A DNA stretch of 10,946 bases from a virus (taxonomy: Duplodnaviria > Heunggongvirae > Uroviricota > Caudoviricetes), in IMG/VR virus record IMGVR_UViG_2531839193_000009, one strand, 5' to 3'. This document shows, piece after piece, positions 299 to 10,946 of this stretch. Position numbers and translations under genes: made by a program. The notes under the pieces are model-generated. The model was given only the letters and a program-made list of their open reading frames with translations, ran no database searches and was not told the origin of the DNA. Positions within the stretch are counted from its first letter, which is position 1; every line of letters starts with the position of its first letter.

Positions 299-454
299 TT
301 ACTCTCTAGATTCGTAGTCTACGAAAACAGCGACCTCCGTCTGGCCGATTCGGATTCGTACCTCGCAGAGGTCTTTCCTCGTTACCAGTGCCGTCACAAT
401 GACGGTTAAACAGATGACGATCAGGGCGATTAACATCGCCTTTTGCTGCTTCAT
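299..454 (-). CDS. hok: Hok/Gef-family type I toxin, 51 aa (HokD/RelF-like)
   Basis: MKQQKAMLIALIVICLTVIVTALVTRKDLCEVRIRIGQTEVAVFVDYESRE closely matches HokD as I recall it (single TM helix, conserved C...C). ATG at 454-452 preceded by AAGGAGAAG Shine-Dalgarno. Confidence 0.85.
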   Translation of the reverse strand: MKQQKAMLIALIVICLTVIVTALVTRKDLCEVRIRIGQTEVAVFVDYESRE

Positions 455-511
455 AGCCTGCTTCTCCTTGCCTTTCGGCACGTAAGAGGCTAACCTACAT
501 TTGTGAGACAT
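299..511 (-). CDS. mok: Mok-like regulatory ORF, 70 aa, same-frame N-terminal extension of hok
   Basis: ATG at 511-509 opens a frame that runs into and shares the stop of hok, the arrangement recalled for chromosomal mok/hok pairs. Confidence 0.5.
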   Translation of the reverse strand: MSHKCRLASYVPKGKEKQAMKQQKAMLIALIVICLTVIVTALVTRKDLCEVRIRIGQTEVAVFVDYESRE

Positions 512-575
512 AGATTGGGCCTCAGATTAATGTTAAGCGTCTTGCAGGACGCGTAATGTTAACTGGGGCTTTTCT
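500..575 (+). ncRNA. sok: Putative Sok-like antisense RNA region (approximate placement)
   Basis: Possible promoter on + strand inside mok (TTGCCT 468-473, 17 bp, TAACCT 491-496) would give an RNA antisense to the mok start/SD. Ends not defined; placed by analogy with hok/sok. Confidence 0.2.
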
Positions 576-792
576 CTGTCTGCCTTACAGTGACATACCC
601 GAGGCAGACAGCCTCAAGCACCCGCAGCAATCTTACCGACACCGATAAGAAAACGCTATTTTTTATTGCCAGCACCATCTATCCAGGCTAGTTTATCTGC
701 GTCAGAACGGCGCAATGCGCTCGCCTGAGATACGTTTACTTGCCATGGTAACAACAGGTAACGGCAATTGCTGTTTCTGTTTTGTTTCCTTC

Positions 793-2613: not shown

Positions 2614-2954
2614 TTATTCAGTTCTGGATTTTGTCGCCCTGCGTATCCGCGCTTTCGCGTTACGCTCAATCTGTATCAGCTTTTCTATATTTCTCCGCCT
2701 TTCCTGTTCCTCCTGGCGCAATAGCCTTACATCATCTGCCAGTCTGGTTTCTCTTTTTGCCACAGAGAGCATCCAGTCAAACGGCTCCACAACCGCACCG
2801 CAGATTTTACAGCGGACCTGACGCTCTTTTTCGTCAACCCGGACAGAGGCGTGATGGCAATATGGTCTTTCCGATGGTTCATAAAGAAAATTAACCTGAT
2901 TACGTGGGTCATCCTCTTTTACCGGAAATAAAACGATATTGCTTAACTCATCTT
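2614..2954 (-). pseudogene. 3' portion of a Zn-ribbon-like phage gene, cut at its 5' side by IS1
   Basis: Frame identified by the 112-bp repeat shared with 4983-5094, in which both mismatches are synonymous; encodes ...VRVDEKERQVRCKICGAVVEPFDWM...RRATKSRTE, stop TAA 2616-2614. Confidence 0.5.
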
Positions 2955-3009
2955 GGTGATGCTGCCAACTTACTGATTTAGTGTATGATGGTGTTTTTGA
3001 GGTGCTCCA

Positions 3010-3285
3010 GTGGCTTCTGTTTCTATCAGCTGTCCCTCCTGTTCAGCTACTGACGGGGTGGTGCGTAACGGCAAAAGCACTGCCGGACATCAGCGCTATC
3101 TCTGCTCTCACTGCCGTAAAACATGGCAACTGCAGTTCACTTACACCGCTTCTCAACCCGGTACGCACCAGAAAATCATTGATATGGCCATGAATGGCGT
3201 TGGATGCCGGGCAACAGCACGCATTATGGGCGTTGGCCTCAACACGATTTTACGTCACTTAAAAAACTCAGGCCGCAGTCGGTAA
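3010..3285 (+). CDS. insA: IS1 InsA, 91 aa
   Basis: ORF track; N-terminal CxxC...CxxC zinc finger, then HTH, as expected for InsA. Confidence 0.9.
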
Positions 3286-3707
3286 CCTCGCGCATACAGC
3301 CGGGCAGTGACGTCATCGTCTGCGCGGAAATGGACGAACAGTGGGGCTATGTCGGGGCTAAATCGCGCCAGCGCTGGCTGTTTTACGCGTATGACAGTCT
3401 CCGGAAGACGGTTGTTGCGCACGTATTCGGTGAACGCACTATGGCGACGCTGGGGCGTCTTATGAGCCTGCTGTCACCCTTTGACGTGGTGATATGGATG
3501 ACGGATGGCTGGCCGCTGTATGAATCCCGCCTGAAGGGAAAGCTGCACGTAATCAGCAAGCGATATACGCAGCGAATTGAGCGGCATAACCTGAATCTGA
3601 GGCAGCACCTGGCACGGCTGGGACGGAAGTCGCTGTCGTTCTCAAAATCGGTGGAGCTGCATGACAAAGTCATCGGGCATTATCTGAACATAAAACACTA
3701 TCAATAA
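3204..3707 (+). CDS. insB: IS1 insB reading frame (made as InsAB' by -1 frameshift in IS1)
   Basis: ORF track frame overlapping the insA 3' end; 3' part identical to window bases 1-191. Confidence 0.85.
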
Positions 3708-3762
3708 GTTGGAGTCATTATGAGGTAGCCTGAGTTTAACGGACACTCCTTCCTGAAATAGA

Positions 3763-4071
3763 ATGGCATCAGAAGGAGCTAATAATGAGCAGAAAACCCA
3801 ACGTTACTCTAAAGAGTTCAAAGCCGAAGCTGTCAGAACGGTTCCTGAAAATCAACTTTCGATCAGTGAAGGCGCTTCCCGATTATCTCTTCCTGAAGGC
3901 ACTTTAGGACAATGGGTTACCGCCGCCAGAAAAGGGCTCGGTACTCCTGGTTCCCGCACGGTGGCTGAACTGGAATCTGAAATTCTGCAACTGCGTAAGG
4001 CGTTAAATGAAGCTCGCCTTGAGCGAGATATATTAAAAAAGCAACAGCGTATTTTGCACAGGAGTCGCTGA
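3763..4071 (+). pseudogene. IS600 orfA, altered: 1-bp deletions in two A-runs change the N- and C-termini
   Basis: A4 at 3793-3796 versus A5 in the other copies puts the canonical ATG (3785) out of frame; A6G at 4035-4041 versus A7G changes the C-terminus to KQQRILHRSR. Confidence 0.7.
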
Positions 4072-4120
4072 AAAATACGCGTTAATCGAACAATGGCGAC
4101 AACAATTTCCCATTGAAGCG

Positions 4121-4939
4121 ATGTGTCAGGTATTTGGTGTATCCAGGAGCGGTTATTACAACTGGGTACGGCATGAACCCTCAGACAGAAAACAAAGTGA
4201 TGAGCGGCTAAAACTGGAGATTAAGGTGGCACATATCCGCACTCGCGAAACATATGGAACCCGGCGGCTCCAGACGGAGCTGGCAGAGAATGGCATCATC
4301 GTTGGTCGTGACCGACTGGCACGTCTTCGTAAGGAGCTAAGGCTACGCTGTAAGCAGAAACGCAAGTTCAGAGCGACTACGAACTCGAACCACAATCTGC
4401 CAGTTGCGCCAAATCTGCTGAACCAGACGTTCGCTCCTACAGCACCAAATCAGGTCTGGGTGGCGGACCTGACGTATGTTGCCACACAGGAGGGATGGTT
4501 GTACCTCGCTGGCATCAAAGATGTTTATACGTGCGAAATTGTCGGCTACGCCATGGGAGAGCGCATGACAAAAGAGCTGACAGGTAAAGCCCTGTTTATG
4601 GCGCTCAGGAGCCAGCGCCCACCTGCCGGGCTAATCCACCACTCTGATCGAGGTTCACAGTACTGCGCATACGATTACCGGGTCATACAGGAGCAGTCTG
4701 GTCTGAAAACATCAATGTCGCGTAAAGGTAACTGTTACGACAACGCTCCGATGGAAAGCTTCTGGGGAACGCTGAAAAATGAGAGCCTGAGCCACTATCG
4801 TTTTAATAACCGGGATGAAGCCATCTCAGTAATACGGGAATACATTGAGATTTTCTACAATCGTCAGCGTCGTCACTCTCGTCTGGGGAATATCTCCCCG
4901 GCAGCCTTCAGGGAAAAATATCATCAGATGGCTGCTTAA
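4121..4939 (+). CDS. IS600 orfB, transposase catalytic (DDE) part, 272 aa frame intact
   Basis: ORF track; the same protein appears disrupted in the inverted copy at 9437-10304. Confidence 0.8.
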   Translation: MCQVFGVSRSGYYNWVRHEPSDRKQSDERLKLEIKVAHIRTRETYGTRRLQTELAENGIIVGRDRLARLRKELRLRCKQKRKFRATTNSNHNLPVAPNLLNQTFAPTAPNQVWVADLTYVATQEGWLYLAGIKDVYTCEIVGYAMGERMTKELTGKALFMALRSQRPPAGLIHHSDRGSQYCAYDYRVIQEQSGLKTSMSRKGNCYDNAPMESFWGTLKNESLSHYRFNNRDEAISVIREYIEIFYNRQRRHSRLGNISPAAFREKYHQMAA

Positions 4940-4981
4940 AAAAGAACAAATGGTAGTGTCCGCTATTGCCAGTACACCTCA

Positions 4982-5110
4982 TACAGAGGCGTGATGGCAA
5001 TATGGTCTTTCCGATGGCTCATAAAGAAAATTAACCTGATTACGAGGGTCATCCTCTTTTACCGGAAATAAAACGATATTGCTTAACTCATCTTCTGGTT
5101 TTATTTCCAT
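4982..5110 (-). pseudogene. 5' portion of the Zn-ribbon-like gene, cut at its 3' side by IS600
   Basis: ATG 5110-5108 with AGGAGAGGAG SD (alternative ATG 5167); frame MEIKPEDELSNIVLFPVKEDDPRNQVNFLYEPSERPYCHHASV ends in a stop supplied by the IS600 terminus (4981-4979). Confidence 0.5.
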
Positions 5111-5167
5111 GCTCCTCTCCTTTGATGCGAATGCCAGCGGTAATTGAAGCCTGATAGCTAATTTCAT

Positions 5168-5590
5168 TCACAGTATCGCCTCCTGAAAATTACCCTGATA
5201 GAAAGCCAGTACACGCTGCATAGCTTCGCTCTTCCGGCACTCGCGACAGATTATATTCAGGCGCCTGTCGTAGCGGCGTATTTCTCCGTCAGGTAATGAC
5301 CAGATAAGGTCCGGATCAACAACAACCGGTTTCCTCACCTTTACTCTCGAGAGTTTTTTGCGGGCGCTTTGCCAGTCCTTGCGAGCCTGTTCAGACGGGA
5401 ATAAGCCGTAGCCAGAATTATATACATCACCACTTGCGACCAGTTCTATGCATAAGCGACCGACAGACGCACGACTGATACCTGTTTCATCTGACAACTG
5501 CCGAATCGTGACCCGACCGTCCTGATGCACGAGTTCCACAATTCGCGTCTTCAGTTCTTCCCGCTGTTCGGGAGTAAAAGGTTTCGCCAT
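5168..5590 (-). CDS. Helix-turn-helix DNA-binding protein, 140 aa
   Basis: ORF track; AGGAGG SD 6 nt upstream; segment VTIRQLSDETGISRASVGRLCIEL resembles a winged-helix/HTH. Confidence 0.7.
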   Translation of the reverse strand: MAKPFTPEQREELKTRIVELVHQDGRVTIRQLSDETGISRASVGRLCIELVASGDVYNSGYGLFPSEQARKDWQSARKKLSRVKVRKPVVVDPDLIWSLPDGEIRRYDRRLNIICRECRKSEAMQRVLAFYQGNFQEAIL

Positions 5591-5604
5591 AAATCCTCCT
5601 GAAA

Positions 5605-6351
5605 CTACTTAACAACCCTCGAATGGCTAACATTCGGACGCCAGCTCTCCCAGTTAAAATTCACCCAGCGCCCGCCGTTCATGACCATGCGATCCATCAC
5701 CCGCTCGCCGAGCAATGTTTTCATCACCTCATAGTTCAGGTTTGTCAGCATCCCCACGCTGCGCATCGACGCTGTCCGGCGATCAACAATCTGGTGCAGC
5801 ACCACCTGCTCGTTTTTCGTCTCGCGCTGAATGCCAATTTCATCAAGAACCAGCAGATCCACTTCGCACAGCTCCCGCAAAAATTTTTCGCCTGACTGCC
5901 CGTCGTCATAGCTGGCGTGCAGGGCGCTCATAACATCAGCCACGGTAACCACAATCACTGTCTGACCGTCTTTCAGCAGGCGATTCCCGATAGCTGCCGC
6001 TAAGTGATTCTTCCCGGTACCAGGTTTTCCGCTGAACGCAAAATTTGTACACCCGGTCATCAGTTCATCGGCGATGGATTTCGCCTGGCTTAACGCGTAT
6101 CGCTGGCCGTCGTTCTGCACCTGGTAATTCGCAAACGAGCATTTACGGTGCAACGGCTGGATGCCTGAGCGATTCAGAATTTTTTCCACCCGCAACTGGC
6201 GATTCAGGCGGTTGATCTCCTCGCTACGTTTCTGGCCTTCAGCAAGTTGCCACTCGCGCCACTCCGCTACCGTTCTGAATGGGGCGGTTACATGTGGCGG
6301 GGTCAGTCGGCGGATGCGTTCCAGAACGCCGCCTGTCGCAATATTTTTCAT
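5605..6351 (-). CDS. DnaC-like helicase loader ATPase (YdaV-like), 248 aa
   Basis: Walker A GKPGTGKNHLAAAIG and Walker B LLVLDEIG; AGGGGG SD; directly downstream of the initiator-like gene. Confidence 0.85.
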   Translation of the reverse strand: MKNIATGGVLERIRRLTPPHVTAPFRTVAEWREWQLAEGQKRSEEINRLNRQLRVEKILNRSGIQPLHRKCSFANYQVQNDGQRYALSQAKSIADELMTGCTNFAFSGKPGTGKNHLAAAIGNRLLKDGQTVIVVTVADVMSALHASYDDGQSGEKFLRELCEVDLLVLDEIGIQRETKNEQVVLHQIVDRRTASMRSVGMLTNLNYEVMKTLLGERVMDRMVMNGGRWVNFNWESWRPNVSHSRVVK

Positions 6352-6706
6352 GGTCCGTTACCCCCTGAAGCCTGGCGGGATCGCACTGTCCGGCAACGAG
6401 ACGGTGTTAACCTGTCGGAGCAACGTCTCAGGCCGAACACCTTTCGGCGCGAACAGGCCCTGGTATTCATTGGCGATGCTGTGTCGAATCACCTGCTCAG
6501 GTGTAAAACCCTGCTGACGGAATTTTTCCAGTTCCCGTATCGCCCCGTTAGCGCCCTGCTCCGTTCGAATCGGTTTTCGCAATGCCTGTCTGAACCGGAC
6601 CCACTCATGCCAGAGTGTTTCCGGCAACCAATCGGGCAGCTCAATAGCCTCCGGCTCGAATTTTTTAGACGCTCGTTTTTGGCGAGGGGGAGATCAGTAT
6701 TTAGAT

Positions 6707-6744
6707 CTTCCTCTTCCTCTTCCTCTTCCTCTTCCTCTTCCTCT
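6707..6744. repeat. (CTTCCT)6 hexanucleotide microsatellite, coding poly-Glu in the initiator-like gene
   Basis: Six perfect tandem CTTCCT units seen directly. Confidence 0.9.
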
Positions 6745-6745
6745 G

Positions 6746-6833
6746 GTAACGCTTTTTGATCCGTTTGTGTAACGCTGGCAGCGTTACCTTTTCGTTTCAG
6801 TTCGCGTATTTTTGTTACTCGCTCGTTTGTAAC
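6746..6833. promoter_or_regulatory. Array of GTAAC/GTTAC sites including the 19-bp palindrome GTAACGCTGGCAGCGTTAC (6769-6787); candidate iterons or origin
   Basis: GTAACGC at 6746, palindrome 6769-6787, GTTAC 6814, GTAAC 6829, spaced 15-27 bp, inside the linker-coding part of the initiator-like gene. Confidence 0.35.
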
Positions 6834-6977
6834 CGCCCGTTTTTTTTAGAGCTTTTTCCGTTATGACGTTCAAAGTTAGGTAGAGAAAGCCCACCGTCAT
6901 TTTCGACCAGCCATCCAACCTGAATTAACGCATCAGCAAAACCAGACATAAAAGTGATGCGATCTATTGCACTTTTT

Positions 6978-6996
6978 GTAACGCCGCGAGCGTTAC
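6978..6996. promoter_or_regulatory. Second copy of the 19-bp palindrome (GTAACGC-CGCGA-GCGTTAC)
   Basis: Same arms as the other two copies; lies inside the initiator-like coding region. Confidence 0.35.
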
Positions 6997-7169
6997 AATC
7001 TGCATTACCGTCTATCATTTGTTGATCCGCCCATGCCCAGAAGCGAATAACCTTCCCTAATGCGGCATCTGGATCAATATTCAGAATCTCAGCAAGCCTG
7101 AATATTTCCGGCTTATCCGGCGTAATAACCTCGAGCTTTATCCAGTTTGAAGCCATTTGTTTTCACCTT

Positions 7170-7188
7170 GTAACGCTCGCAGCGTTAC
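7170..7188. promoter_or_regulatory. Third copy of the palindrome (GTAACGCT-CGC-AGCGTTAC), just upstream of the initiator-like gene RBS
   Basis: Sits 14 nt upstream of the ATG at 7156, next to the AAGGTGA SD; candidate operator or 5'-UTR hairpin. Confidence 0.4.
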
Positions 7189-7233
7189 ATTTAACTGATA
7201 CCGAACAAAACAATCCGGCACGATTAATTTCAA

Positions 7234-7539
7234 TCAATGCACTACGACAGAATCGCCGGGCGACCCACCACCGCTGAAATGTGCTTTCCGGTAAACGGCC
7301 TGGACAGCATCATCATGCGCATCAATTGCCGTACTCAACGCTTCCTGCGCCGCCAGTAATGCACGGCGTTCCAGGGTATCGAAGATACAGAGTCGGTGAC
7401 GCAGCTCACGCGGAAGAATTGCCAGAACCGCAGGGATCAGTTTCTGAATTTTTTCCCTTTGCGCTTTCGTTTCACCTTTCAACCAACGGTGATAGATATT
7501 CTGCTGATTGTTCCAGTCCTTGCCTGGTACCAGAGACAA
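7234..7539 (-). CDS. Hypothetical protein (at least 101 aa) downstream of dicC; N-terminus unresolved
   Basis: Frame is open back to the dicC TGA and has no canonical start (track start is TTG); the ATG at 7642-7640 that overlaps the dicC stop is 1 nt out of frame. Confidence 0.45.
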   Translation of the reverse strand: MSLVPGKDWNNQQNIYHRWLKGETKAQREKIQKLIPAVLAILPRELRHRLCIFDTLERRALLAAQEALSTAIDAHDDAVQAVYRKAHFSGGGSPGDSVVVH

Positions 7540-7638
7540 TTCGCCGCCCCCCTGCCGCAGATATTCTTCAGTAATTGCGTTAGCGACCCACGCCTGCCCT
7601 TTTTCGGCTGCCAGGGCAACAGCACTGATTCGATGTGC

Positions 7639-7866
7639 TCATGCCTGATTTTCATGAATCACCTTCCAAGGTCGTTTTGCCTTACGATATTCGTCATAAA
7701 CTTTGGGGTCGTACTGAAGTTCCCCGCCAGATGCCTCTTGCAGGCGCATCGCGCGACCTTCAGGAACCAGTTCCCCCCATGCAGCAATGCTTGCCAGCCT
7801 AACTCCTGCGGCATTGGCAAGCTTTGTTTTGCTGCCAAAAAACGCTATAGCATCAATTTTCAACAT
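7639..7866 (-). CDS. dicC: DicC-like Cro-type regulator, 75 aa
   Basis: Divergent from the DicA-like gene; AAGGAG SD; sequence and length resemble DicC as I recall it. Confidence 0.75.
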   Translation of the reverse strand: MLKIDAIAFFGSKTKLANAAGVRLASIAAWGELVPEGRAMRLQEASGGELQYDPKVYDEYRKAKRPWKVIHENQA

Positions 7867-7942
7867 ATCGAGCTCCTTAGATTTTCCTAAGGAAACTAGA
7901 TCGTAGAGAAACCTAAGTCAAGAAAAATTAGAATTCCCTAAT
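7867..7942. promoter_or_regulatory. Divergent promoter/operator region with two TTAG-N6-CTAA operators
   Basis: TTAGATTTTCCTAA (7877-7890) and TTAGAATTCCCTAA (7928-7941), between the two divergent regulator starts. Confidence 0.55.
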
Positions 7943-8350
7943 ATGAAAAACGAAACCTTCGGTGCTCGCCTCTTACATAGGCGTAAAAAATTAAAACTGT
8001 CTCAGGCCGCATTAGGTAAGCTGGTCAAAGTGGCTCACGTAACAATTTCTCAATGGGAAAGAGATGAAACACAGCCGGCGGGGAAAAGATTATTCGCACT
8101 GAGCCAAGCGCTTCAGTGCTCACCGACTTGGCTTCTTTTTGGGGATGAAGATAAACAACCAGGCGAACCGATCCCGGATAATCAGCCAGCCATTCTGACA
8201 GAAGATCAAAAAGAGTTACTTCAACTGTTCGACGCACTGCCTGAGTCAGAGCAAAAGGCCCTGTTGTCAGAGATGCGTGCTCGAGTTGAAAATTTCAACA
8301 AACTTTTTGAAGAACTACTCAAAGCTCGCAAAAGAAGCGCAAACAAATAA
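7943..8350 (+). CDS. dicA: DicA-like XRE-family repressor, 135 aa
   Basis: N-terminal HTH (LSQAALGKLVKVAHVTISQWER) and C-terminal PESEQ...EMRARVENFNKLFEELLKA, matching DicA from memory. Confidence 0.8.
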   Translation: MKNETFGARLLHRRKKLKLSQAALGKLVKVAHVTISQWERDETQPAGKRLFALSQALQCSPTWLLFGDEDKQPGEPIPDNQPAILTEDQKELLQLFDALPESEQKALLSEMRARVENFNKLFEELLKARKRSANK

Positions 8351-8382
8351 TCCCCTTTTTTCTCCACACCCTGTAATAAAAA

Positions 8383-8410
8383 GCACAAACTTTCAAACAC
8401 TTGTGTTTTT
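8383..8410 (+). terminator. Weak intrinsic terminator after the dicA-like gene
   Basis: GCACAA/TTGTGT stem with a 12-nt loop, followed by T6. Confidence 0.35.
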
Positions 8411-8424
8411 TACATCAAAAAACT

Positions 8425-8476
8425 TAGGTTTTTCTACACAAAAATCTTGACCGCCCACCTTAGGTTATTCTAAATT
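8425..8476 (+). promoter_or_regulatory. Repressor-controlled promoter for the ydfA-like operon (P-dicB analogue)
   Basis: TTGACC (8447-8452), 18 bp, TAAATT (8471-8476); operator TTAGGTTATTCTAA (8460-8473) between -35 and -10, plus imperfect TTAGGTTTTTCTAC (8425-8438). Confidence 0.5.
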
Positions 8477-8552
8477 TCATTCATCAAGACACCGCACGGT
8501 GTTCTCAGCAAACAGTTCCGCTACCCCGGCGTTAAGGGGAAATGGGGTCAAC

Positions 8553-8708
8553 ATGAATACTATCGATCTTGGCAACAACGAATCTCTGGTGTACGGCGTG
8601 TTCCCCAACCAGGACGGCACATTCACCGCCATGACGTATACCAAAAGCAAAACGTTTAAAACCGAAGCTGGCGCACGTCGTTGGTTGGGAAGACATTCAG
8701 GTGAGTAA
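8553..8708 (+). CDS. ydfA: YdfA-like small protein, 51 aa
   Basis: MNTIDLGNNESLVYGVFPNQDGTFTAMTYTKSKTFKTEAGARRWLGRHSGE; first gene after the dicA-like gene as in Qin; track ORF starts at an upstream GTG. Confidence 0.65.
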   Translation: MNTIDLGNNESLVYGVFPNQDGTFTAMTYTKSKTFKTEAGARRWLGRHSGE

Positions 8709-8720
8709 AATGAACGAGAC

Positions 8721-9010
8721 TGAGGTAGCCTGAGTTTAACGGACACTCCTTCCTGAAATAGAATGGCATCAGAAGGAGCTAATAATGAGCAGAAAAACCC
8801 AACGTTACTCTAAAGAGTTCAAAGCCGAAGCTGTCAGAACGGTTCTTGAAAATCAACTTTCGATCAGTGAAGGCGCTTCCCGATTATCTCTTCCTGAAGG
8901 CACTTTAGGACAATGGGTTACCGCCGCCAGAAAAGGGCTCGGTACTCCTGGTTCCCGCACGGTGGCTGAACTGGAATCTGAAATTCTGCAACTGCGTAAG
9001 GCGTTAAATG
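8721..9010 (+). mobile_element. IS600-like left-end fragment (290 bp), truncated inside orfA
   Basis: Matches 3721-4009 of the full copy (with A5 rather than A4); identity stops at 9010/9011. Confidence 0.85.
8785..9010 (+). pseudogene. IS600 orfA, 3'-truncated
   Basis: Canonical MSRKTQRYSKEF... start; frame runs into unrelated sequence after 9010. Confidence 0.75.
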
Positions 9011-9443
9011 TTGGATAAAATTCGCAATCTGGACTGTTCAGCAAAATTCACTGAGCACAATTTTGTGTCGAGCGAATACACCGACTCAACCGGGCGCAAA
9101 CTCCCAATGTACCAAATCACCAAAAACGGCTTCGTTTTCCTGGTGATGGGCTTCACGGGCAAAAAAGCCGCCGCATTCAAAGAGGCATACATTGCTGAGT
9201 TCGACCGCATGGAGGCCGAACTGCGCCAGAATAACACCCCACCTGCTGACAAGATGATTCCGGGTGATGGTCGCACTCTGGTTGTTCACTTCGACAAATT
9301 CGGCAATGTCGAATTCACCGAAACCGTTCCTGATGGCGCACTGGTCTGTCCCCTGGAGACTTTCCGGTTTTATCTGGAAAAACAGGGATGGACTCTTGTT
9401 AACCGGGGCGCAATTAAAAATATGACTGTGGAACAATTACTTT
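9011..9443 (+). pseudogene. Rha-family phage regulatory protein fragment, truncated at both ends by IS600
   Basis: Motif YQITKNGFVFLVMGFTGKKAAAFKEAYIAEFDRME typical of the Rha domain as I recall it; no native start, 3' end cut at 9443/9444. Confidence 0.55.
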
Positions 9444-10304
9444 TGAGGTGTACTGGCAATAGCGGACACTACCATTTGTTCTTTTTTTAAGTCAGCCATC
9501 TGATGATATTTTTCCCTGAAGGCTGCCGGGGAGATATTCCCCAGACGAGAGTGACAACGCTGACGATTGTAGAAAATCTCAATGTATTCCCGTATTACTG
9601 AGATGGCTTCATCCCGGTTATTAAAACGATAGTGGCTCAGGCTCTCATTTTTCAGCGTTCCCCAGAAGCTTTCCATCGGAGCGTTGTCGTAACAGTTACC
9701 TTTACGCGACATTGATGTTTTCAGACCAAACTGCTCCTGTATGACCCGGTAATCGTATGCGCAGTACTGTGAACCTCGATCAGAGTGGTGGATTAGCCCG
9801 GCAGGTGGGCGCTGGCTCCTGAGCGCCATAAACAGGGCTTTACCTGTCAGCTCTTTGTCATGCGCTCTCCCATGGCGTAGCCGACAATTTCGCACGTATA
9901 AACATCTTTGATGCCAGCGAGGTACAACCATCCCTCTGTGTGGCAACATACGTCAGGTCCGCCACCAGGCCTGATTTGGTGCTGTAGGAGCGAACGTCTG
10001 GTTCAGTCAGATTTGGCGCAACTGGCAGATTGTGGTTCGAGTTCGTAGTCGCTCTGAACTTGCGTTTCTGCTTACAGCGTAGCCTTAGCTCCTTACGAAG
10101 ACGTGCCAGTCGGTCACGACCAACGATGATGCCATTCTCTGCCAGCTCCGTCTGGAGCCGCCGGGTTCCATATGTTTCGCGAGTGCGGATATGTGCCACC
10201 TTAATCTCCAGTTTTAGCCGCTCATCACTTTGTTTTCTGTCTGAGGGTTCATGCTGTACCCAGTTGTAATAACCGCTCCTGGATACACCAAATACCTGAC
10301 ACAT
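9437..10304 (-). pseudogene. IS600 orfB with several frameshifts
   Basis: Split into two track ORFs (9437..9949, 9858..10304); single-base indels relative to the intact orfB at 4121-4939. Confidence 0.8.
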
Positions 10305-10706
10305 CGCTTCAATGGGAAATTGTTGTCGCCATTGTTCGATTAACGCGTATTTTTCAGCGACTCCTGTGCAAAATACGCTGTTGCTTTTTTTAATGTATCT
10401 CGCTCAAGGCGAGCTTCATTTAACGCCTTACGCAGTTGCAGAATTTCAGATTCCAGTTCAGCCACCGTGCGGGAACCAGGAGTACCGAGCCCTTTTCTGG
10501 CGGCGGTAACCCATTGTCCTAAAGTGCCTTCAGGAAGAGATAATCGGGAAGCGCCTTCACTGATCGAAAGTTGATTTTCAAGAACCGTTCTGACAGCTTC
10601 GGCTTTGAACTCTTTAGAGTAACGTTGGGTTTTTCTGCTCATTATTAGCTCCTTCTGATGCCATTCTATTTCAGGAAGGAGTGTCCGTTAAACTCAGGCT
10701 ACCTCA
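9444..10706 (-). mobile_element. IS600-like element, full length, inverted; orfA intact, orfB frameshifted
   Basis: Ends TGAGGTGTACTGG... (9444) and ...GGCTACCTCA (10706), reverse complements of the IS600 termini. Confidence 0.9.
10340..10642 (-). CDS. IS600 orfA, intact, 100 aa
   Basis: MSRKTQRYSKEF...ILKKATAYFAQESLKNTR with the A7G slippery heptamer (10384-10391 on +). Confidence 0.85.
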   Translation of the reverse strand: MSRKTQRYSKEFKAEAVRTVLENQLSISEGASRLSLPEGTLGQWVTAARKGLGTPGSRTVAELESEILQLRKALNEARLERDTLKKATAYFAQESLKNTR

Positions 10707-10946
10707 ATGGCTTCATCCCGGTTATTAAAACGATAGTGGCTCAGGCTCTCATTTTTCAGCGTTCCCCAGAAGCTTTCCATCGGAGCGTTGTCGTAACAGG
10801 TTACCTTTACGCGTACATTGATGTTTTCAGACCAGACTGCTCCTGTATGACCCGGTAATCGTATGCGCAGTACTGTGAACCTCGATCAGAGTAGGTGGAT
10901 TAGCCCGGCAGGTGGGCGCTGGCTCCTGAGCGCCATAAACAGGGCT
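10707..10946 (-). mobile_element. Diverged IS600-like orfB internal fragment running off the window
   Basis: About 98% identical to 9603-9840 of the adjacent copy, with small substitutions and indels. Confidence 0.7.

Follow-up and report, generated by a model that had tools for sequence, protein, structure and literature searches.

Three copies of a 19-bp palindrome, GTAACGC-N5-GCGTTAC, occur in and just upstream of the replication-initiator gene of a prophage, and the question that they raise is what reads them. We consider it fairly probable that the prophage's initiator recognizes the GTAACGC/GCGTTAC elements and that they form an origin of the lambda style inside its gene. A preliminary description had proposed such an origin; its main idea is partly supported, in that the kind of element is apparently right and a number of details are wrong. 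The window denotes here the whole stretch of DNA that was analyzed (10,946 bp).

The prophage remnant and its initiator gene

The window is a decayed remnant of a Rac-like prophage lying between IS elements. Region 4983-8720, with copies of IS1 and of the IS3 family on both sides, corresponds to the block for immunity and replication in a lambdoid prophage of the Rac type. It contains a DUF977 gene and the following genes:

7943-8350, plus strand: DicA/RacR-like repressor
7639-7866, minus strand: Cro/YdaS-like gene
7234-7655, minus strand: ydaT
6358-7156, minus strand: initiator pseudogene, in the "ydaU" slot
5605-6351, minus strand: ydaV, for a helicase-loader ATPase of the DnaC/IstB kind; the partner gene in the replication module (PF01695, E 1e-19, and annotation of homologues)

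The nearest E. coli chromosomes are 97.8% identical over 6300-7300, and Shigella is the source of many protein fragments with 99% identity. In the Rfam scan of the window, sok was the sole match.

The gene given as the replication initiator in the preliminary description is a pseudogene here, with two frameshifts with respect to intact relatives: 2 nt are inserted in the T-run 6840-6847, and 10 bp are deleted near 6686-6691. What remains is a pair of ORFs, 6815-7156 and 6358-6627. In ydaT, there is a frameshift by a 1-nt deletion near codon 13. The candidate origin of the window is, thus, a fossil that cannot fire on its own, since both the initiator gene and ydaT carry frameshifts and IS elements flank the region; the cis sites of the origin are intact.

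The reference for the protein is the intact 264-aa homologue (locus L001, 6059-6853). In the initiator, a linker joins an N-terminal domain resembling a winged helix to a C-terminal domain of the O-like kind. The winged-helix-like look of the N-domain (~100 aa) comes from the predicted fold; a profile search gave no PDB relative for it, and sequence searches of Pfam, NCBIfam, and PDB gave nothing meaningful. The intact homologue matches no Pfam family at E up to 0.01, and its sole NCBIfam match is a sub-threshold one to DnaT over the last 19 aa of the full protein. On the other hand, PHROG 2509 ("replication initiation protein") covers the whole of the intact homologue, with additional matches of its C-terminal half to "O-like" (PHROG 678) and "primosomal" PHROGs. 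The N-domain family comprises 6615 clusters at 50% identity (E up to 1e-3).

Palindromes, half-sites, and polypurine tract

With two mismatches or fewer allowed, GTAACGCNNNNNGCGTTAC has exactly three matches in the window, and all three are exact occurrences of GTAACGC-N5-GCGTTAC, as first described. The mean in shuffled sequences is 0.04, and three copies were reached in none of 200 shuffles. The 7-mer GTAACGC occurs eight times (1.05 expected), with seven of the eight copies within 6746-7188. The perfect arms of the three palindromes measure 9, 7, and 8 bp, and the centers are variable. The elements are:

7170-7188: upstream palindrome GTAACGCTCGCAGCGTTAC, in the ydaT-ydaU spacer (77 bp), 1 nt before the RBS AAGGTGA
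6978-6996: palindrome GTAACGCCGCGAGCGTTAC in the part coding for the N-domain, codons ~54-60, peptide CNARGVT; proposed auxiliary initiator site
6829-6836, minus strand: Rac-type extra half-site, GCGGTTAC on the coding strand
6814-6818, minus strand: Rac-type extra half-site, GTAAC on the coding strand
6794-6798, minus strand: degenerate outer left half-site GTTTC (GAAAC on the coding strand), 11 nt upstream of the linker palindrome
6769-6787: linker palindrome GTAACGCTGGCAGCGTTAC, with arms of 9 bp; the central dimer site proposed for the core origin
6746-6752, minus strand: outer half-site GTAACGC (GCGTTAC on the coding strand), followed by CC and the polypurine tract
6706-6744, minus strand: polypurine tract of 39 nt on the coding strand, ~6.5 copies of (GAGGAA), encoding poly-Glu

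All three palindromes had been assigned to the initiator gene. This holds for the copies at 6769 and 6978, which lie within its reading frame; the copy at 7170 lies in the spacer between ydaT and ydaU. The linker palindrome is at about nt 369 of the gene (nt 367 in intact relatives) and encodes the peptide GNAASVT. The palindrome 6978-6996 is at nt 160 on the coding strand, and its peptide is, in the AF2 model, a low-confidence loop joining two helices.

The half-sites reported around the linker palindrome are present (6746-6752, 6814-6818, and 6829-6833), in addition to the degenerate one at 6794-6798. The outer half-site 6746-6752 is 23 nt away from the inner half-site, compared with 11-12 nt in most relatives, and the wider gap amounts to one additional helical turn. 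At the equivalent of 6794-6798, relatives read GTAAC or GAAACGC; the degenerate form is conserved in 75 of 84 Rac-like sequences. The Rac type is characterized by two extra GTTAC half-sites that derive from substitutions in the otherwise conserved motif KKRALTNRRVA. The one at 6829-6836 arises by a change of RALT into RAVT. The equivalent of 6814-6818 reads GTTAC in about half of the 84 Rac-like sequences (L001 and L002 among them), the difference being a synonymous GTT to GTA. On the coding strand, the order in the linker is GCGGTTAC, GAGTAAC, the degenerate GAAAC, the palindrome, GCGTTAC, CC, and the purine run. The linker contains, therefore, one full 19-bp palindrome and three to four single half-sites, with the other two palindromes 209 and 401 bp away. 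In the intact homologue, the cluster 6746-6836 maps to residues ~105-137, immediately N-terminal to the 124 aa at the C-terminus that are shared with K-12 YdaU.

The purine tract adjoins the last half-site and is conserved at the DNA level in the family. With 50% G+C here, it is not a classical A+T-rich unwinding element. The number of GAGGAA copies differs between strains (two more here than in intact relatives), and homologues have (AGAGA)n at that position. In the charged stretch that follows the last half-site, 81 of the 96 Arg codons are AGA (84%), against 107 of 1314 (8%) elsewhere in the same ORFs; the peptide "REEKRREE" reflects, therefore, the (AGAGA)n purine tract.

Conservation across homologous loci

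The comparative set consists of 10 phage loci and 71 loci from species-representative genomes that encode the initiator N-domain, and 77 loci were compared. The hosts belong to Enterobacterales, Pseudomonadales, Xanthomonadales, Burkholderiales, Vibrio, Planctomycetota, Verrucomicrobiota (Akkermansia), and others, with a locus G+C content from 0.38 to 0.68. In most loci, GTAACGC-N5-GCGTTAC occurs at nt ~148-161 (around codon 50) and a second time in the linker, at nt ~338-392, with further half-sites around it. The linker palindrome occupies an equivalent position from Enterobacterales to Planctomycetota, and identical words are kept in loci of 43%-68% GC. In the homologues, the linker cluster stops just 5′ of C(C/T)AGAGAAGAGAAGAG.

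Other clades use other words in the same layout, with the word used alike at the N-domain site and at the linker site: GTCACGC/GCGTGAC (e.g., Pseudomonas nitroreducens, Paraburkholderia, and a Vibrio phage), GTCCGC/GCGGAC (epsilon15, phiPSA1, and an Anaerolineales MAG), GTAGAC/GTCTAC (Ralstonia phage Raharianne), and CTAACG/CGTTAG (a Pirellula MAG). Palindromes whose 6-nt arms are identical are found in both the N-domain and linker windows in 43 of the 77 loci, compared with three of 1154 control placements, in which the same two-window geometry was shifted elsewhere in the loci. The motif classes change together at every site of a gene.

Among motif-bearing homologues, the C-terminal domains vary (O-like, DnaT-like PF17948, or others), and so do the downstream genes (DnaC-like or DnaB). 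Only the N-domain, therefore, accompanies the motif throughout, and the elements travel with it, which fits sequence-specific sites that co-evolve with this domain. The motif classes mostly follow the protein clades, and the link between protein and motif could be due in part to shared descent.

In a search of plasmids, two phage-sized "plasmids" were found (52 kb and 41 kb, the latter with phage genes for a CII-family regulator, NinB, and Rha); neither proves autonomous replication.

Selection at the DNA level

The repeats could, in principle, be a by-product of the repeated peptide G-N-A-x-S-V-T, a product of chance, or a dispersed palindrome of the REP type. We regard this as very improbable. 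Both internal copies are indeed in the same reading frame with similar peptides, and, of 142 representatives, 123 have the peptide at the N-domain site, 99 at the linker site, and 89 at both. Nevertheless, the synonymous positions are fixed and covary, and, where the flanking residues change, their GT or GC codon endings stay. In a codon test anchored on the protein alone (site G-[N/H]-A-x-x-V-T, with a few mis-registered rows left out), the N-domain site has AAC together with GTT (50 loci) or CAC together with GTG (seven loci); the first base of the Asn/His codon is complementary to the synonymous third base of the Val codon. Elsewhere in the initiator genes, the usage among Val codons is 29% for GTT and 31% for GTG. 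At DNA-selected sites, the residue preceding Asn is G, S, C, or R, always with an NGT codon, and the residue preceding Val is mostly S, G, or R, with NGC codons. In addition, the third copy (7170-7188) is noncoding, and an expectation of 0.04 copies speaks against chance.

As to dispersion, the relaxed motif GTAACG-N7-CGTTAC (two bases looser than the 19-mer) has 73 copies within -60 to +520 of the initiator start in 74 related loci and none in the 216,722 nt of their flanks. In the K-12 Rac region, the relaxed motif is likewise absent, and so is the palindrome even with three mismatches allowed. The preliminary description had named a dispersed repeat as the outcome that would count against it; over the window and the flanks (217 kb), a palindrome of the REP/BIME type is not borne out, the three copies being the only ones of the window and the flanks having none. 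Palindromes and half-sites are, on the codon evidence, under selection as DNA and not as protein.

The geometry of the half-sites points in the same direction. Between direct neighbors of the same orientation, the distance is 11-12 nt (57 cases) or 23-24 nt (15 cases); between inverted neighbors, it is 14 nt (43 cases), 25-26 nt (nine), or 37 nt (two). The spacing proceeds in steps of about one helical turn, which fits sites lined up along one face of the helix, and, since several of the distances are not multiples of three, the reading frame is no explanation. The commonest architectures are >><, >><<, and ><<; half-sites in direct orientation occur in >>< and >>><<, and the Rac type is <<><<. 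The purine run starts 1-2 nt after the end of the last half-site in 36 of 54 loci. The distances between the N-domain and linker sites (189-231 bp) have no common helical phase, so that strictly phased looping is unsupported.

Variation within the population was followed in an IMG/VR alignment scan, which covers near-identical Rac-like loci only and was used for that purpose and not for diversity. Among 61 unique Rac-like sequences, four of the 42 arm columns are variable, compared with nine of the 15 center columns and 139 of 523 others, in agreement with the conserved arms and variable centers noted at the outset. Conserved arms with free centers fit a dimeric protein that would not read the spacer. 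The centers found include reverse-complement pairs (TCACA with TGTGA and TGCCA with TGGCA), and the center of the linker palindrome alternates between TGCCA and TGGCA.

Such flips of the centers suggest, however, hairpin or cruciform formation, and the main rival reading is that the palindromes are hairpins of the early mRNA (for stability, processing, or the tuning of translation) and not DNA sites bound by a protein. It accounts for the dyad covariation, since a conserved RNA hairpin would show the same compensatory changes in the arms across lineages. The upstream copy can fold in the mRNA into a 9-bp stem with a 3-nt loop, directly 5′ of AAGGUGA, the RBS of the initiator gene (z-score of the segment, -2.28). 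But a structure needs no fixed sequence, and yet the arm words recur at two to three places per gene, are the same from Enterobacterales to Planctomycetota and Verrucomicrobiota, and switch class at all sites of a gene together. Further, many half-sites are unpaired and in direct orientation, 11-12 or 23-24 nt apart, and the cluster keeps a fixed position beside a purine tract conserved at the DNA level. Hairpins as the function of the palindromes are, in our view, quite unlikely. On the mRNA strand, the palindromes are followed 3′ by AAGGUGAAAAC, AAAAAGUG, and ACAAACGG, which contain no U-run of an intrinsic terminator; the sole terminator-like call, at 6769, is on the antisense strand and within the number expected by chance, and a terminator reading was rejected.

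The upstream copy

The palindrome 7170-7188 is at -32 and ends 14 nt before the ATG at 7156. E. coli/Shigella, Winslowiella, two species of Serratia, and Pantoea have a copy at -31 to -43. No such copy occurs in Serratia fonticola (L096), Pectobacterium (L100), or Samsonia (L102); 8 nt separate the end of the upstream gene from the initiator start in L096. The upstream copy is found only where no upstream gene directly abuts the initiator gene.

A copy so close to the start of the gene raises the alternative that the sites are transcriptional operators only, for the initiator as an autorepressor or for another phage or host factor, with the origin elsewhere. The three sites, ~200 bp apart, resemble looping operator sets, and autorepression by Rep proteins at the inverted repeats of iteron plasmids offers a precedent. 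An operator role of the upstream copy is possible. However, with a crude consensus scan, no sigma-70-like site was found in 6300-8100, a region in which the initiator gene sits inside the early right operon; a promoter reading of the palindromes was likewise rejected, no promoter-like site being found there. Most homologues have no upstream copy and nevertheless keep the internal sites and the purine tract, which an operator-only role leaves unexplained, and the position in the linker agrees with the known arrangement of the lambda origin. The neighboring regulators vary among loci, and YdaT, a CII-like protein, can be set aside as the binder of the palindromes, since its footprinted operator is the unrelated TTGATT-N6-AATCAA (PMC9986795). 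Overall, operators without an origin role appear rather unlikely. The copy at 7170 itself could be a third origin site, a roadblock, an autoregulatory site, or an RNA element.

A candidate origin within the initiator gene

With the elements taken as recognition sites of the initiator, the N-domain would bind each 19-bp palindrome as a dimer, and further subunits would occupy the flanking half-sites, about one helical turn apart. The core origin would consist of the linker cluster 6746-6836 and the polypurine tract 6706-6744, and the duplex would open there, with the tract serving as a DNA-unwinding or helicase-entry element. The C-terminal domain of the initiator would then recruit the DnaC-like YdaV and, subsequently, the host helicase. 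Upstream by ~200 and ~400 bp, the copies at 6978 and 7170 would be auxiliary initiator sites that help to build a larger nucleoprotein complex; alternatively, initiator bound to these distal palindromes could impede the rightward early transcript entering its own gene. We infer initiator binding, origin firing, and unwinding at the purine tract; the comparison across loci gives the idea strong but indirect backing. In the literature search, we found no mention of the motif, of the purine tract, or of an origin of the epsilon15 or TL-2011b type (an absence that is no proof of novelty), and no report of binding or origin activity for any member of the initiator family.

For the window itself, the result is modest: a dead copy in an IS-riddled remnant. 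Tentatively, the arrangement may extend to the whole of this large initiator family without a Pfam entry, each member carrying a standard origin cassette within its own gene. The family numbers ~6600 clusters (at 50% identity) in Proteobacteria, Planctomycetota, and Verrucomicrobiota, including Akkermansia. The cassette might be composed of a binding site within the sequence that codes for the protein's own DNA-binding domain, half-sites nested in the linker at helical-turn intervals, and a (GAGAA)n tract. The peptide motifs G-N-A-x-S-V-T and REEKRREE could then be by-products of DNA signals, a suggestion that we hold with some doubt.

If true, the recognition word (GTAAC, GTCAC, GTCCGC, or GTAGAC) would be readable from the sequence, and the origin and its specificity would be predictable in thousands of phages and prophages. 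This would provide a sequence-readable origin for a phage initiator family that is very large and experimentally untouched; among its members are those of Salmonella phage epsilon15, E. coli phage TL-2011b, Xanthomonas/Xylella phages, and Akkermansia prophages. It would also be a clear case of dual coding, in which DNA sites dictate amino-acid motifs of the very protein that binds them.

Comparison with known systems

The mapped Rac origin is oriJ, that of K-12 Rac. The prophage type, the gene slot, and the type of YdaV partner are the same, and the C-terminal 124 aa of the intact homologue are 80% identical to those of K-12 YdaU. In contrast, the N-domain of YdaU is DUF1376, to which the first 140 aa of the intact homologue are unrelated, and the K-12 Rac region carries repeats of its own, GATGTTCAAACA. 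With a different N-domain and no motif in K-12, the knowledge of oriJ does not apply to the GTAACGC element; K-12 Rac is ruled out as a reference, and the comparison with mapped origins of Rac-type prophages suggested in the preliminary description would, with oriJ, be no test of the idea. "Rac-like" prophages would, thus, comprise at least two unrelated origin-and-initiator specificities, and results on K-12 oriJ are not transferable between them.

In satellite phage P4, the alpha protein binds at ori and at crr, ~4.5 kb apart. The recognition repeats are, as in P4, at two or more separated places, which are proposed here to cooperate. Unlike here, the sites of P4 are outside the coding sequence of the initiator's DNA-binding domain, and the protein families are unrelated.

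In iteron plasmids (pSC101, pPS10, F, and R6K), Rep monomers bind direct iterons and Rep dimers an inverted-repeat operator, and the Rep proteins repress their own genes at the inverted repeats. Similarly, a single word is used here both as direct single half-sites and as inverted repeats, with an inverted repeat just upstream of the initiator gene and a predicted winged-helix-like fold. The differences are that the sites are inside the coding sequence, that no promoter was detected over the upstream palindrome, and that there is no sequence similarity to Rep families.

The lambda origin lies inside gene O, in the part coding for the linker, and is bound by the O protein. It has four tandem iterons of ~19 bp with internal dyad symmetry, beside an A+T-rich region. 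The C-domain of O recruits the helicase loader, and phages exchange the sites and the N-domain together. The candidate origin described here is likewise in the linker of the initiator gene, between N-domain and C-domain; its sites are ~19 bp long with internal dyad symmetry, next to a strand-asymmetric region. Sites and N-domain are, again, exchanged together, and the C-terminal part of the intact homologue matches the "O-like" PHROG 678. The lambda-like linker origin first proposed stands, thus, in its layout, as compared across loci, and fails in two respects: the N-domain is not lambda-O-like (it is unrelated by sequence to lambda O, Pfam Phage_rep_O, and has no Pfam match), and there is no tandem array of four iterons, but one palindrome with single half-sites in a nested, inverted order. 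In addition, there are two further palindromes upstream, at 200 and 400 bp, of which one falls within the stretch coding for the DNA-binding domain, and a (GAGGAA)n or (GAGAA)n purine tract replaces the plain A+T-rich stretch of lambda. On the sequence evidence, the GTAACGC system fits a lambda-style origin whose protein family and site grammar differ from those of lambda.

Palindrome centres and half-sites of the initiator gene

The centres of the palindrome GTAACGC-N5-GCGTTAC occur, in different strains of the population alignment of Rac-like loci (L014-L094), as reverse-complement alternatives, TCACA/TGTGA and TGCCA/TGGCA (at positions corresponding to 6776-6780 and 7177-7181 of the window). 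The three-base alternative TCACA/TGTGA is the pattern that would be expected of template switching or of cruciform-mediated inversion at palindromes.

In initiator genes with half-sites of the GTCCGC class (here those of phages epsilon15 and phiPSA1), the auxiliary site is found at nucleotides about 55-115 of the gene, and not at about 148-161. In epsilon15, it consists of four nested half-sites (two GTCCGC followed by two GCGGAC), and this nesting mirrors the linker cluster. The same region of phiPSA1 contains one GTCCGC and two GCGGAC.

In the linkers, a purine tract, (AGAGA)n or (GAGGAA)n, encodes the widely conserved charged peptide of the initiators, 'REEKRREE' or poly-Glu (window 6706-6744; linkers of L004-L164). 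Its conservation at the nucleotide level spans phyla, and arginine is encoded by AGA in 84% of cases within the tract versus 8% elsewhere. The number of repeats varies between strains, with about 6.5 units in the window and 1.5-4 in relatives.

In the ydaU gene of E. coli K-12 Rac (L003), the N-domain of which is DUF1376, the sequence GATGTTCAAACA is repeated about five times (L003 4263-4563), with three of the copies clustered in the linker-coding region. These copies are candidate binding sites for oriJ, the mapped origin of that prophage.

N-domains in records filed as plasmids

Two records filed as plasmids encode the N-domain: NC_015459.1 of Pusillimonas sp. T7-7 (41 kb) and CP088505.1 of E. 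coli (52 kb). The Pusillimonas record carries phage genes (a CII-family regulator, NinB, and Rha) and thus looks like a circular phage genome; it may be an episomal prophage replicating from the N-domain initiator module.

Insertion sequences and decay of the remnant

The prophage remnant is bracketed and truncated by IS copies, among them several of an IS3-family element, whole or partial and in both orientations. A Rha-like ORF (9008-9490) is one example of a gene cut in this way. Such bracketing and truncation is genome decay of a Shigella-like pattern. The window also contains the antisense RNA of a hok/sok module.

1-204, 2950-3720, 3721-4981, 8721-9010, 9444-10706, 10707-10946: IS copies
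3204-3707: DDE_Tnp_IS1 ORF of the single IS1 copy
3763-4071 and 4121-4939: orfA and orfB of an IS3-family element
449-623, minus strand: sok antisense RNA (score 118 bits; gathering threshold 59)

ydaT and a possible operator

7234-7655, minus strand: ydaT, CII-like regulator, with a lesion near 7613
about 7208-7225, minus strand: TTGATT-N6-AATCGT element (TTGATTGAAATTAATCGT) in the ydaT-ydaU spacer

Compared with intact E. coli copies, ydaT has a deletion of one nucleotide near codon 13 and is therefore, like the initiator gene, frameshifted. The spacer element TTGATT-N6-AATCGT lies beside the upstream palindrome and could be a target of a CII-like protein; it resembles the footprinted YdaT operator of CP-933P, TTGATT-N6-AATCAA (PMC9986795).
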